Below are positions 42,292 to 55,652 of a DNA stretch of 64,000 nucleotides, in pieces. The position numbers and the translations under genes were made by a program. Positions within the stretch are counted from its first letter, which is position 1. Each line of letters starts with the position of its first letter. The notes below the pieces were generated by a model that did not search any database, was not told where the DNA came from, and worked only from the letters and a program-made list of their open reading frames with translations. Source of the stretch: a bacterium (GTDB lineage Bacteria; Cyanobacteriota; Vampirovibrionia; Obscuribacterales; JAKAZS01); contig JAKAZS010000004.1 in the NCBI GenBank assembly GCA_021815785.1, positions 58 to 64,057 on the forward strand. The letters run 5' to 3'.

Positions 42292-44148
42292 ATGTTTAAC
42301 ACCACAAATTTAAATCAAAAAATTTCTAATAAAACTCATACTGCCACCAAAAGCTCTAATTCATTATTTACAAATAATGTTCTTCATCACGGCTTAATCT
42401 TAAACATTATAACACCAATAAATAGGGTAGAAAACATTATTAATACAGTAAGTAAAAGAAATAACCCTAAACCTGTTTTACCAGTTGCGCCAGAATATAT
42501 AGTAAAAATCATAAAAGCCTATTTAACTGCCTGGTTTACCCAAAATAGAACTGGCGGCATAAGTATGATTATTACTTATGTTATAGCTGGTTTAATTATC
42601 CAGCAAGCTTTATGCATTAGTGCAGCAGCTAGTGGATTTAATTTATGTTTAATTAGCAATAAAACCAGGCAGAATCTACCTCTAAACGATAATGCCGGAA
42701 GTATTGGTTATTTTGAGCCACCAAATTCCGATCAATCTGTATTAGCTAAGAATACGGCGACTAGCTTTTCGACATTTAAGGGTGATAATTCACTAACTAA
42801 AGGTTATCAATTACCCAAATCAACACATGACGCTGGTTTAGTGGTGCGTAATCCTGAATTTGCCAATTTAATAAAATCTAGTTATGATAAAACCAGTTTA
42901 GCTGAAATCAGTAAAATCTTAGCAGCAAAAAAAACCGTACAATTAAATAGATATGAAGGTGGGGGGCATTCAGCTGTCACCATTGTCGATAAACCCAGCC
43001 TAGAATCAGCCATTGGGGGTTTACTAATTTTACAATGGGACCGCGATAATATCATGCAAGCTTTAGCTGAATATCAAGCTAAATTTAATTCCAATCTAAA
43101 AGATTTTAATATAGGTGAGGACGCATGGAAAAAAGGCTTATCGTCTTCGCTTAAATATCAAATGAAGCATCAGTTTCGTATTATTGATGTAATAGATGGT
43201 AAAACCAGTGTCAGCGACATTAACGCTCGACCCCATATTCGCTATATTGGGGTTGGCCTAGAAGATATTAATGATCCCTGGGGCAATGCCCAAAATGATG
43301 CTTTGTCCTCAATTAATTATTTATTATTTCATGCAATGAATGAAAATCATTTAAATATTGAAGACCCCTTAATTGCACCATATGCTAACAATTACGCAGT
43401 ACTTTTACCTAATTATTTTAAAACTGTTCGTGTATGGGAAGACTGGGATTTTGGCGCCTGGGAAGATAAGCGAGCTGAACACGCCTCTTCAATAGGCATG
43501 GCCTTAGCTTGTTTGCGAGAGCAAAAAACTTATGTTGATAAACATGGTTCATTAAGCTATATAACTAAAGGTAAAACTTATTCAGTCAATTCAAATGATT
43601 TAAATGATTTAATCACTAAATGTGAAAACAAATTAAAAACTTTATTACCAGACGAATTTACAAAAAGCGATGATAACAGCATTAGACATGTTGATGCAGC
43701 TTTAGTAAATCCACTTTATTTAAGTGCTTTATCACATAGAGCCTTACTTGATGATTCCATGAATTCAACCATAATTAATAATATTCAAAATCAACTTATG
43801 GGTGATATAGGTATACGTCGTTATCCTGGCGATGTTTGGGATGGCAGGGTTAATCGCAATGAATTGCCCCCAAGTATGTCGGCTCAATGGACTCATGTGT
43901 CACCGATGATTAGCGTCATATTAGCCGATATGTATGCTAGAACTAAGAATCCAGAATTATTAAAAGGCCAAATATTTCACTTTAATCGAGCTCTAGCAGC
44001 CATAGATGCTGATAGAAAAATACCCGAGGCTTACATTAGAGATAAAGATAACACCAAGTGGATTGCTGATGACAATAAACCTTTAGCTTGGTCACAAGCC
44101 AGTTTAATCGCAGCTCTAATTGCCATGCATCAAAGCATTGGTCCGTAA
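42292..44148 (+). CDS. GH15-family (glucoamylase / phosphorylase-kinase alpha-beta-like) protein, short paralog
   Basis: WGNAQNDALSSINYLLFHA and WEDWDFGAWEDKRAEHASSIGMALACL resemble the PHK-alpha/beta-type GH15 (alpha/alpha)6 domain, as does RRYPGDVWDG. The N-terminus carries a partial copy of the shared module. Confidence 0.7.
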   Translation: MFNTTNLNQKISNKTHTATKSSNSLFTNNVLHHGLILNIITPINRVENIINTVSKRNNPKPVLPVAPEYIVKIIKAYLTAWFTQNRTGGISMIITYVIAGLIIQQALCISAAASGFNLCLISNKTRQNLPLNDNAGSIGYFEPPNSDQSVLAKNTATSFSTFKGDNSLTKGYQLPKSTHDAGLVVRNPEFANLIKSSYDKTSLAEISKILAAKKTVQLNRYEGGGHSAVTIVDKPSLESAIGGLLILQWDRDNIMQALAEYQAKFNSNLKDFNIGEDAWKKGLSSSLKYQMKHQFRIIDVIDGKTSVSDINARPHIRYIGVGLEDINDPWGNAQNDALSSINYLLFHAMNENHLNIEDPLIAPYANNYAVLLPNYFKTVRVWEDWDFGAWEDKRAEHASSIGMALACLREQKTYVDKHGSLSYITKGKTYSVNSNDLNDLITKCENKLKTLLPDEFTKSDDNSIRHVDAALVNPLYLSALSHRALLDDSMNSTIINNIQNQLMGDIGIRRYPGDVWDGRVNRNELPPSMSAQWTHVSPMISVILADMYARTKNPELLKGQIFHFNRALAAIDADRKIPEAYIRDKDNTKWIADDNKPLAWSQASLIAALIAMHQSIGP

Positions 44149-44157
44149 ATTTAATTT

Positions 44158-53305: not shown

Positions 53306-53465
53306 AACTTCGACTTAAAACCATTGTTCCACAATCCTTTTCTTAATATTACGCCTACTGATTCCGAAACAAATGAATATTTTCTCCTTGCGGTTTTTCC
53401 CATTGAAATTGGTTAAAAACATATCTATTATTAAGCATTATTAATAGCTTTTATGGGTAAAACAA

Positions 53466-55652
53466 ATGATTGAAGGTAACAAGTCAATTGAAACTAAAAC
53501 AGAAAAGTTAAACTCAAATAAAAACAATCCTAAAAACAATTCATTTTTTACCAATAATATTCTTCATCCATTATTAAATTCAGCCGTAATTACACCGGTT
53601 GATGTAGCTGAAAATATGGCTAATGCGGTTAGTAAAACCCTTGATCATAAAGACATTCTTCCGGTAACACAAGAATATAAAATTCAACCCCAAAAACCTT
53701 ATACAGCTTCTTGGCTGGCTCAAAATGTCGCTAGCGGTATTGGCATGGCGGTTCCTTTTGTTGTAGCGGGCCTAGCCACCCATGAAGCTCTAGCCACTGG
53801 AGCAGATACCTTAGGCCTTAAAACTGAAGTCAGTGCAATTCTTAAAAGTCAAAGTACAGCTATGATAGCTGGATCTGGCCTCGTCGGGTATTTTGGGCCA
53901 TTACAAACTGGGCAAACGCGTATTGGTAATGCGGCAGCTAACTTAGCGAGTTTTAGCGTATTTATGGGTGGTAATAGCTTAGTCAAGGATTTACCACTTT
54001 CAACCAGGTTAATCGCCAATGCTCCCATTGGCGCTATTGGTGCCATAACGGGTCTAACTAGCCAAAGTTTAATTACCCAGGACAAATTACCCAATGCCAG
54101 TGAAATTTTAAGTGCCGGTATTACTGGAGCGACCTTAAATACTTTATTGCCAGCTGTTCAAGAATTAGGCTTTAAAGGTATAGAATCTGTTAAAAATAAT
54201 ATCCAGCTTAAATCTGCGACAGCCAATAGCATAGACTTAGCTAACAATAACGAATTTGCTAATATTAGTGAGATTGCTTTAATTCCGAAAAACTTTGAAA
54301 TAACCTCACCCAATCCTTATCCATATATCGCTGATGCTAAACTGGATTTTCAAAATCCAGACGTTGAAGGCTTAGCTAAAACCAGTTATGATAAAGCCAG
54401 TTTAGATAAATTAACTACTTTTTTAAGCAAAAATAAAACCATTGAATTAAGACGTTATTCAAGTGGTGGTCAGTCAGCGGTTACGGTAATTGACGAACCC
54501 AGTCTCGAATCAGCAGCAGGCGGCTTATTAATCTTGCAATGGGACAGGGATAATATAATGCAGGCGTTATCTGAATACCAAGCCAAATTTAACCCTGATT
54601 TAAATGCCTTGCATATTGTCGATGATAATGCCTGGAAAAATGGCTTAGCTTCATCATTAAAATATCAGATGACCCATCAGTATCGCTTATTGGATATTAT
54701 TGATGGCAAAGCTAGTGGTTTTGATATTGGTGCCAGACCACATATCCGCTACAATGGTGTTAGCTTAGAAGATGTTGGCGATCCGTGGGGCAATGCTCAA
54801 AATGATGCTCTGGCTTCAATAAATTATTTATTATTCCACGCAATAAATGAAGGTCATTTAAAGATTGATGACCCAACCATAGCCCCATATGCCAAAGATT
54901 ATGCAGCGATATTGCCTAATTATTTTAAAACCATACATGCATGGGAAGACTGGGATTTTGGTGCATGGGAAGACAAACGGGCTGAACATGCTTCATCAAT
55001 CGGCATGGCCTTGGCCAGCCTACGCGAACAAAAAACCTATGTTGATAAAAATGGTCCTTTATCTTATGAATATAATGGTAAAACTTATGCTGTAAACTCT
55101 AGTGACCTTGAAGGTCTAATCAGTAATTGTGAAAACAAATTAAAAACCTTATTGCCTAATGAATTTGTCAGATCAGATGACGGTAGTATTAGAAATGTTG
55201 ATGCAGCTTTAATAAACCCGCTTTATTTAAGTGCCTTATCACACCAACCTTTACTGGATGATGCAATGAATACAACTATCATTAAAAATATTGAAAGTCA
55301 ACTGATGGGTGATATTGGTGTTAGACGTTATCCTGGCGATGTCTGGGATGGCCGGATTAATCGCACTGAATTGCCATCAGACATGGCAGCCCAATGGACT
55401 CATGTGTCACCAATGATTTCAGCCGTATTATCTGATATGTACGATCGCACGCAAAACCCTGAATTTTTGAATGGCCAAATTTTTCACTTTAATCGAGCAT
55501 TAGCTGGAATTGACTCAGATTGGAAACTTCCTGAAGCCTATATTAGAAATGCCGATAATACTCAGTGGATTGCTGATGCCAATAAACCACTTGCTTGGTC
55601 ACAATCTAGCACACTTGCAGCTTTAAGTGCCATGTACAAACGAGTTCACTAA
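53466..55652 (+). CDS. GH15-family (glucoamylase / phosphorylase-kinase alpha-beta-like) protein, long paralog with the full N-terminal module
   Basis: The C-terminal ~450 aa are colinear and highly similar to 42292-44148 (for example SLESAAGGLLILQWDRDNIMQAL and WEDWDFGAWEDKRAEHASSIGMALASL). The N-terminal ~235 aa match the N-terminus of the GlgX gene. Confidence 0.7.
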   Translation: MIEGNKSIETKTEKLNSNKNNPKNNSFFTNNILHPLLNSAVITPVDVAENMANAVSKTLDHKDILPVTQEYKIQPQKPYTASWLAQNVASGIGMAVPFVVAGLATHEALATGADTLGLKTEVSAILKSQSTAMIAGSGLVGYFGPLQTGQTRIGNAAANLASFSVFMGGNSLVKDLPLSTRLIANAPIGAIGAITGLTSQSLITQDKLPNASEILSAGITGATLNTLLPAVQELGFKGIESVKNNIQLKSATANSIDLANNNEFANISEIALIPKNFEITSPNPYPYIADAKLDFQNPDVEGLAKTSYDKASLDKLTTFLSKNKTIELRRYSSGGQSAVTVIDEPSLESAAGGLLILQWDRDNIMQALSEYQAKFNPDLNALHIVDDNAWKNGLASSLKYQMTHQYRLLDIIDGKASGFDIGARPHIRYNGVSLEDVGDPWGNAQNDALASINYLLFHAINEGHLKIDDPTIAPYAKDYAAILPNYFKTIHAWEDWDFGAWEDKRAEHASSIGMALASLREQKTYVDKNGPLSYEYNGKTYAVNSSDLEGLISNCENKLKTLLPNEFVRSDDGSIRNVDAALINPLYLSALSHQPLLDDAMNTTIIKNIESQLMGDIGVRRYPGDVWDGRINRTELPSDMAAQWTHVSPMISAVLSDMYDRTQNPEFLNGQIFHFNRALAGIDSDWKLPEAYIRNADNTQWIADANKPLAWSQSSTLAALSAMYKRVH

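Follow-up and report, generated by a model that had tools for sequence, protein, structure and literature searches.

Why should three enzymes that act on alpha-glucans, and whose catalytic domains belong to two unrelated folds, begin with the same segment of protein? The question is raised by a stretch of 64,000 nucleotides (nt) from the Obscuribacterales lineage JAKAZS01 (forward strand positions 58-64,057 of contig JAKAZS010000004.1, assembly GCA_021815785.1; hereafter the window), in which uninterrupted reading frames at 42292-44148 (+), 44158-47019 (-) and 53466-55652 (+) encode proteins of 618, 953 and 728 amino acids (aa), respectively. We find that these proteins, one GlgX-type debranching enzyme and two paralogues resembling glycoside hydrolase family 15 (GH15), carry the founding N-terminal domain (hereafter the module) of a large and modular family of proteins that is restricted to Obscuribacterales. 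Their parts are laid out as follows:

42292..42828, + strand: shortened, degenerate module of the 618-aa paralogue, residues 1-179 (BLASTP, hmmalign to the family profile)
42829..44148, + strand: GH15-like catalytic domain of the 618-aa paralogue (PF00723, 35.4 bits; BLASTP)
44158..46314, - strand: GlgX after the module: a linker of about 45 aa, CBM48 (residues 281-370), the GH13 catalytic domain and the isoamylase C-domain (Pfam PF02922, PF00128, PF21156)
46315..47019, - strand: full N-terminal module of the 953-aa GlgX, residues 1-235 (BLASTP, family hidden Markov model, shuffles)
53466..54206, + strand: full N-terminal module of the 728-aa GH15-like protein, residues 1-247 (AlphaFold2, family hidden Markov model)
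54207..55652, + strand: 728-aa protein after the module: a linker, then the (alpha/alpha)6 catalytic domain of GH15-like type (Pfam PF00723)

Pfam recognises a CBM48, an alpha-amylase and an isoamylase-C domain in the 953-aa protein, within residues 281-928 only. PF02922 scores 57.1 bits (cut-off 22.4) and PF00128 88.8 bits (cut-off 22), the four conserved regions of GH13 are intact in the translation (DVVFNHT, VDGFRFDEA, IAEPW and FITAHD), and the score against NCBIfam TIGR02100, at 620.1 bits, falls narrowly short of the cut-off of 640.9. Matches to GH15 (PF00723, cut-off 22) are confined to residues 248-587 of the 618-aa protein and 358-678 of the 728-aa protein (35.4 and 40.9 bits), and the catalytic domains of these two share 72% identity by BLASTP. 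To judge from their sequences they are a divergent subfamily of GH15, for which no sequence relative was found in the PDB at E<=0.01, and which goes by the name 'phosphorylase kinase alpha/beta subunit' in some sources. No Pfam or NCBIfam family covers the first 180-250 residues of the three proteins.

An earlier note on this DNA had proposed that the N-terminal regions of GlgX and the 728-aa protein are colinear despite the unrelated catalytic folds that follow, and our comparisons bear this out. Pairwise BLASTP with compositional adjustment aligns the two over 220 columns at 30% identity (E 5e-19), the 618-aa and 728-aa N-termini over 157 columns at 38% (E 4e-30), and the 618-aa and GlgX N-termini over 145 columns at 24% (E 9e-8). 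The similarity holds equally against 1000 shuffles, where Smith-Waterman scores of these pairs reach z = 21, 40 and 12, respectively, and a profile built from the three copies matches the six-frame translation of the window at exactly these three places. The hidden Markov model of the whole family scores 329 bits with the GlgX module and 415 bits with that of the 728-aa protein. Given the E-values and z-scores, chance or compositional similarity can be rejected, and the homology of the three N-termini is, as far as sequence comparison can tell, beyond reasonable doubt. Frameshift or mis-assembly can likewise be rejected, and the N-termini are not mis-called upstream open reading frames (ORFs): the frames are intact, and the fusions are not artefacts because the identical 728-aa product is read on 11 contigs (ENA, Logan and NCBI assemblies) and the same module stands on at least 26 diverged GlgX clusters whose catalytic domains are 47-85% identical. 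In GlgX the module consists of a polar leader of about 13 aa followed by six predicted helices. The 618-aa paralogue, which the earlier note described as keeping the first half, does retain helices 1-4 (about 170 aa) and has helices 5-6 deleted; alignment to the family profile with hmmalign adds a correction, in that the hallmark residues P35, N38 and P97 and the GETRxGN loop are lost from this copy as well.

How far does the module extend beyond these three enzymes? An exhaustive HMMER profile search of 1.84 billion representative proteins returned 254 module clusters at E<=1e-3, 184 of them at E<=1e-10. In the best 150 of the 254 clusters, whose proteins span 156-2013 aa, the module begins no later than about residue 110 and mostly between residues 5 and 60, and it is N-terminal in the ORFs as called at all 59 genomic loci described below; a short, variable and polar leader precedes it in the family. 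In a Pfam census of 121 full-length members the module itself drew no family and most proteins had no match at all; the remainder showed a wide range of C-terminal cargo: PolyA_pol with PolyA_pol_RNAbd (12-13 members), HD (18), dCTP-deaminase-like DCD (5), DUF2252 (3), GlgX-type enzymes (3 more), GH15, PLDc_2, Patatin, EEP, Endonuclease_NS, Peptidase_S8, M20, beta-carbonic anhydrase, and DUF6932 together with LRR, TPR and HEAT repeats. Repertoires of effectors or polymorphic toxins typically have such a spectrum, and the family shows the architecture of polymorphic effectors and toxins, namely a constant N-terminal domain, exchangeable C-termini and multiple paralogues per genome. The earlier note had suggested a common targeting device for a set of glucan enzymes; targeting remains the most plausible role, but with at least 254 clusters and C-termini as diverse as the census reveals, a device specific to glucan enzymes can be rejected. 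The module of the 728-aa protein is closest to modules of non-glucan proteins, and that of GlgX clusters with modules of other GlgX orthologues and a few non-GlgX members, a pattern of sequence similarity that suggests independent fusion of the module to GlgX and to GH15-like enzymes.

The phyletic distribution of the module was surveyed with a degenerate DNA pattern for T-R-[LIV]-G-N-A-x6-F-x2-F-x2-G-N in one genome each of 185,579 species, a pattern for which we estimate fewer than one chance match and which detects 24% of family members. It returned 61 loci, of which 59 have a module ORF and two are chance matches without one (in Neobacillus and Halodesulfovibrio). Most of the 59 are labelled Candidatus Obscuribacterales, Obscuribacteraceae, Melainabacteria or 'Cyanobacteria bacterium', the exceptions being one metagenome-assembled genome (MAG) of an unnamed 'bacterium' and a few records of Drouetiella or Oculatellaceae. 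The contigs of the latter two (L020, L036, L038, L043 and L056) carry syntenic genes 81-87% identical to those of Melainabacteria or Obscuribacterales MAGs, and one protein (P0095) bears the names of both 'Leptolyngbya sp.' and 'Candidatus Melainabacteria'; because of this syntenic identity and double naming we regard the Drouetiella, Oculatellaceae and Leptolyngbya labels as naming inconsistencies, probably taxonomic mislabels in public records. All 59 module loci lie in MAGs of the Obscuribacterales/Melainabacteria type, that is, in one lineage only. Up to four pattern matches occur in a single genome. A further MAG that belongs to the window's species (DAHXLC01, in which the 728-aa protein, at locus L049, is 98% identical) encodes an additional module protein, the fourth of the species, of at least 853 aa (L013:83-2641, +), which runs to the end of its contig and has a C-terminus without significant Pfam match.

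The earlier note could not assign the module to any named domain, and our searches agree. AlphaFold2, given an alignment of 38 sequences, predicts the module of the 728-aa protein as six helices at residues 25-60, 81-115, 121-143, 152-172, 178-205 and 211-244, with a mean pLDDT (predicted local distance difference test) of 89.7 and a pTM (predicted template modelling score) of 0.80, confidence being low for the first 20 or so residues. Foldseek searches with this model against 350,542 PDB chains gave no match at E<=0.001 (best E 0.44, template modelling score 0.23), nothing significant emerged from BFVD (best E 0.15), and profile searches of the PDB found no match. Membrane helical bundles and the N-terminal parts of large phage 'polyvalent' or ejection proteins come closest in Foldseek, though without significance. 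Scanning of 38 modules with Pfam models at E<=5 yielded scattered single matches, none to secretion domains of the LXG/PE/PPE type, and the same modules gave equally scattered single matches and nothing consistent in NCBIfam, PHROGs and PADLOC, including one weak PHROG match annotated 'DNA ejection protein'. A chlamydial Inc-like bilobed hydrophobic domain was considered and rejected, resting as it did on a single NCBIfam match (E 0.017) in one of the 38 members. Full-text searches of the literature on secretion, predation, effectors and contractile injection in Obscuribacterales and Melainabacteria turned up no account of the domain, and the public names seen for module proteins refer to the C-terminal enzyme alone or read 'hypothetical protein'. 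The module is an undescribed domain of about 220 residues, with a confidently predicted fold that lacks a structural match.

A second domain frequently follows the first. In 79 of the best 150 clusters, or 72 of the 127 that are long enough (57%), a zincin-like domain of about 170 aa abuts the module directly; it contains an invariant HExxH (H, E and H), a Glu 37 residues downstream and a Tyr, and in the 59 loci it is never seen without the module. Most GlgX orthologues, of 1000-1180 aa, do carry it, and it is absent from all three proteins of the window as well as from the remaining 43% of sufficiently long members. The window's three glucan enzymes are therefore module-only members of the family, one of them degenerate. 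AlphaFold models the zincin-like domain with a pLDDT of 92, and Foldseek places it nearest to mini-gluzincins and M4 peptidases, though none of these matches is significant; a profile search of the PDB found no match. Among 23 members compared with known families, three reach eCIS_core/DUF4157 (PF13699), all below threshold (best E 0.0023), the first member tested scoring 13.1 bits where the cut-off is 22, and two reach Peptidase_M91, again below threshold. It is a second undescribed domain (e.g. L036:2043-5471, -; L042:1859-5368, +). A long subfamily of 1405-1750 aa (P0006, P0011 and P0019) combines module and zincin-like domain with a long repeat-rich middle containing an HD-type motif, and with a common C-terminal region that ends in '...LPI(V/I)(V/I)LDP' and has no Pfam assignment.

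Relatives of the window enzymes differ in how they begin. Outside the lineage, as the earlier note had expected, both start directly with their catalytic parts: the nearest GlgX relatives without the module are proteins of 723 aa from Isosphaeraceae (48% identity), and cyanobacterial GH15-like proteins are 437-440 aa long. A search with the GH15-like catalytic domain (query 54300-55649) found 1173 homologues, the nearest module-free ones being 444-530 aa in length, and the family is expanded in Obscuribacterales-type genomes (P0170-P0262). Of 119 GH15-like relatives, 71 have no N-terminal addition, 35 begin with a Sec-signal-like sequence and five with the module; since N-termini of these three formats replace one another, the GH15-like family appears to have been repeatedly re-addressed.

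What, then, might a constant N-terminal domain do for so varied a set of proteins? We consider it quite possible, if short of probable, that the module serves as a common tag for trafficking or localisation, with export or delivery as its likeliest purpose. As an address tag, it would hand the fused cargo to one common export or delivery route or docking site; the tagged GlgX and GH15-like enzymes would be routed out of the producer's cytoplasm and would there attack foreign alpha-glucan, be it glycogen or starch of the environment, of prey or of a host. We infer a trafficking function, an extracytoplasmic destination and a cognate machinery; by analogy, the combination of a constant N-terminal domain, an optional zincin, exchangeable C-termini and several copies per genome is a hallmark of the trafficking domains of polymorphic effectors. 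A more specific proposal, that the module is the loading domain of an undescribed Obscuribacterales route which injects or exports a polymorphic arsenal into other cells, we hold to be doubtful. If it were true, nucleases, phospholipases, proteases and nucleotide-modifying as well as glycogen- and starch-degrading enzymes would be delivered to other cells, the GlgX and GH15-like enzymes would mobilise the storage glucan of the victim, and a group now regarded as free-living heterotrophs would have a predatory, parasitic or strongly antagonistic lifestyle.

Several observations weigh against export or delivery. The first set concerns delivery machinery: the module genes of the window have no genes for secretion, injection or chaperones beside them, be it in the window or in its flanks, and clustering of neighbouring genes within 4-10 kb of each of the 59 loci recovered generic TPR, kinase and histidine-kinase families only. 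The pattern is absent from IMG/VR viral contigs, a tblastn search with the family consensus found no match in phage and plasmid records, and the link between the zincin-like domain and DUF4157 is, on sequence, only a lead. The cargo is a second concern, as the CCA/poly(A) polymerase-like, carbonic anhydrase and M20 domains are those of ordinary cytoplasmic enzymes, and because 71 of the 119 GH15-like relatives lack any signal, these are taken to be cytoplasmic. Third, all Obscuribacterales-type GlgX proteins found in the search carry the module, so that the tagged protein may be the organism's working debranching enzyme, and this would speak for an intracellular role; if it is the only such enzyme, it may need to reside in the cytoplasm. 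Lastly, the module is predicted to be folded, and the loading sequences known from cargo of extracellular contractile injection systems (eCIS), by contrast, are disordered.

With regard to the neighbourhood itself, sheath, tube and baseplate families are absent from the Pfam-annotated genes of the window and flanks, the approximately 9 kb leftward of the window hold no further copy of the module, and the clustering gave no conserved neighbour family that could represent a downstream immunity gene, immunity genes being themselves polymorphic. A TPR-repeat gene adjoins the module gene in about seven loci (L011, L012, L015, L022, L041, L052 and L067) and is divergent from it in the four compared, although similarity among TPRs may inflate this cluster; at least three of the adjoining module genes encode GlgX orthologues (L012, L015 and L052), and in the window an EamA gene lies upstream instead.

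The same evidence lends itself to a rival explanation, in which the module is an intracellular docking or scaffold domain that concentrates enzymes at the inner face of the membrane, on a glycogen or polyphosphate granule or in a homo-oligomeric assembly. This we think unlikely, though it deserves to be kept in view: the module is present throughout the GlgX clade of the order, and the normal substrate of GlgX is glycogen in the cell's own cytoplasm; enzymes of cytoplasmic type are frequent among the cargo; the prediction for the module is a compact folded bundle, whose helices, low in charge and rich in small residues, could associate with one another or bind peripherally to a membrane; and secretion genes do not lie nearby. 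However, cargo such as a non-specific nuclease, PLD, patatin, subtilase, EEP and LRR is ill-suited to a harmless intracellular scaffold, a Sec signal peptide occupies the equivalent position in GH15-like relatives, and a family with many shuffled copies and polymorphic C-termini bears the signature of delivery.

Two further alternatives depend on the composition of the module, which the earlier note had described as hydrophobic. This proves overstated, as only one helix, helix 2, is hydrophobic, and that moderately (Kyte-Doolittle mean of about 1.5 over 19 residues). Charged residues (K, R, D and E) make up 11-12% of the module versus 21-22% of the catalytic parts, Gly, Ala, Ser, Thr and Asn are abundant, and the helices are rich in small-residue motifs of the Gly-x-x-x-Gly type. 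Several positions in the helices or between them are conserved and polar (N38, Q86, the E/Q-T-R-x-G-N loop, N170 and N225), with Asn, Gln, Arg and Glu conserved inside them. The cost of membrane insertion, expressed as the summed Hessa free energy of the best 19-residue window (a crude scale), is +5.6 kcal/mol for the GlgX copy and +5.5 kcal/mol for the 728-aa copy, values in the range of soluble enzymes such as DXS, and family medians for the individual helices run from +6.6 (helix 2) to +12.7 kcal/mol. The EamA, Na/Ca exchanger and PMT_2 proteins of the window, taken as controls, each have 6-7 segments below +2.5 kcal/mol, with minima of -1.6 to -2.6 kcal/mol. Only the degenerate 618-aa copy possesses a lone near-transmembrane segment, its helix 2 (+2.5 kcal/mol). 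As for export signals, the first 35 or so residues of the window proteins show no positively charged n-region with hydrophobic h-region of a Sec, Tat or lipoprotein signal; the N-termini are polar (MDKISITQTKDKSD..., MIEGNKSIETKTEK... and MFNTTNLNQKISNK...), and the first hydrophobic stretch begins at residues 65-90.

One of these alternatives is conditional translocation, whereby a soluble bundle, once released, would insert its buried helix 2 into a target membrane and carry the cargo across or form a pore, as do colicin pore domains, the diphtheria toxin T-domain and the N-terminal transmembrane domains of prePAAR effectors. A single central helix of moderate hydrophobicity in a polar, low-charge bundle, the abundance of Gly-x-x-x-Gly-type motifs, the non-significant Foldseek resemblance to membrane bundles and phage 'polyvalent'/ejection N-termini, and the weak PHROG match to a 'DNA ejection protein' would all suit it. 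We nevertheless judge it rather improbable, given that no significant structural likeness to colicin, T-domain or Bcl-2-like folds was found by Foldseek (template modelling score at most 0.43) nor any significant match to another fold, that in most members helix 2 falls far short of the hydrophobicity needed for insertion (median +6.6 kcal/mol), and that exit from the producer cell would still need explaining. The other is the main suggestion of the earlier note, that several hydrophobic stretches insert to form a constitutive multi-pass inner-membrane anchor that tethers the enzymes. It could appeal to the low content of charged residues, the six long helices, the membrane proteins among the top non-significant Foldseek matches and the one borderline segment of the 618-aa copy, but the insertion energies of both full copies and of the family at large, the membrane controls from the same window and the conserved polar residues inside the helices indicate that these are too polar for classic transmembrane segments; a membrane anchor is therefore unsupported, and we reject it as very improbable. 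Finally, it is scarcely credible that the module is a pro-domain, acting within the molecule to chaperone or inhibit the HExxH domain and persisting as a mere relic in the window enzymes: long N-terminal propeptides are common in secreted metalloproteases, and module and zincin are contiguous in 79 of 150 clusters with the zincin never alone in the 59 loci, but the module is the more widespread of the two, 43% of long-enough members, including all three of the window, lack the zincin, and the module without it is still well conserved (GlgX orthologues with 95% identity in the catalytic domain share 89% in the module).

The genes lie in an ordinary chromosomal setting of approximately 34% G+C, with DnaB, DnaJ/GrpE, FtsZ, a MurE-like ligase, the ribosomal proteins L21/L27, DXS and ThyA/FolA, a PatA_N protein and a two-component system, and an Rfam scan of the window found no family at threshold. 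The GlgX and 618-aa genes are convergent with 9 nt between them, and the 3' end of the 728-aa gene overlaps a convergent M1 aminopeptidase gene (55623-58139, -) by 30 nt (55623-55652). The EamA-family transporter gene that adjoins GlgX (47295-48305, -) encodes a C-terminal tail of about 60 residues in which histidines number more than 20 (HGHSHWHESMTHTHFHIHTDGHHNHQHTG...HHRHSHD), a composition suggestive of metal binding. A protein of 480 aa (40410-41852, -) has a weak TPM_phosphatase match, one hydrophobic segment, a long Asn/Ser-rich region and an acidic C-terminal tail rich in Asp, Gly and Ser (...DFGGADEGYGSGDMDFGGSGDWG).

If the module is indeed a delivery or localisation tag, it defines the cargo list, hundreds of clusters long, of an unknown trafficking system in Obscuribacterales, an uncultured and non-photosynthetic order that is common in soil, freshwater and wastewater. 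The family profile would then be a handle for finding the machinery by phyletic co-occurrence, a new six-helix fold would be predicted, and glycogen- and starch-degrading enzymes would become exported weapons or foraging tools, as in Chlamydia and Legionella, which would change our view of the ecology of the order. Even if it acts inside the cell, the module is a new family-defining domain.

Among known systems, the LXG and PE/PPE domains of type VII secretion and the MIX, RIX and prePAAR domains of type VI secretion resemble the module in being conserved, lineage-typical helical N-terminal domains of roughly 100-250 aa that are joined to exchangeable enzymes in many paralogues, and PE/PPE proteins also have low-charge, Ala/Gly-rich helices. 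They differ in that no Pfam model matches the module and its fold is unmatched, and no cognate machinery or chaperone was identified near module genes; type VII secretion is not known from the cyanobacterial sister group that hosts the module. The closest formal parallel is provided by eCIS cargo, which likewise combines a system-specific N-terminal region, an optional small metallopeptidase-like HExxH domain (DUF4157) and a highly variable C-terminal effector that bears enzymes of toxin type. In AlgoCIS cargo of the Cgo1/Cgo2 type, the N-terminal part is the loading signal (PMC8213781; bioRxiv 10.64898/2026.05.27.728243). Yet eCIS loading sequences are short and disordered, while the module is a conserved and confidently predicted six-helix domain, the zincin of the module family reaches PF13699 only below threshold and is absent from the window proteins, and no contractile injection genes were seen within 4-10 kb of module copies, and the DNA pattern had no match on viral contigs.

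Precedents for the cargo itself come from pathogens, as Chlamydia trachomatis secretes GlgX, GlgP and MalQ by type III secretion (PMC4829429) and Legionella injects the amylase LamA via Dot/Icm (PMC8262857). In these cases, as would be the case for the window enzymes, alpha-glucan enzymes of housekeeping type are coupled to a delivery signal, and they act on host glycogen outside the bacterium (PMC4829429, PMC8262857, PMC5910436). For the window enzymes export is an inference, and the signals of the pathogen enzymes are short N-terminal (type III, about 20 aa) or C-terminal (type IV) peptides rather than a domain of 220 aa. Nearest to hand are the Sec-bearing GH15-like paralogues of Obscuribacterales type: although they begin with a classic signal peptide of 20-30 aa, in contrast to the polar N-terminus and 220-aa module without h-region of the window proteins, they share an equivalent catalytic domain (40-50% identity) and carry their N-terminal addition in the same position.

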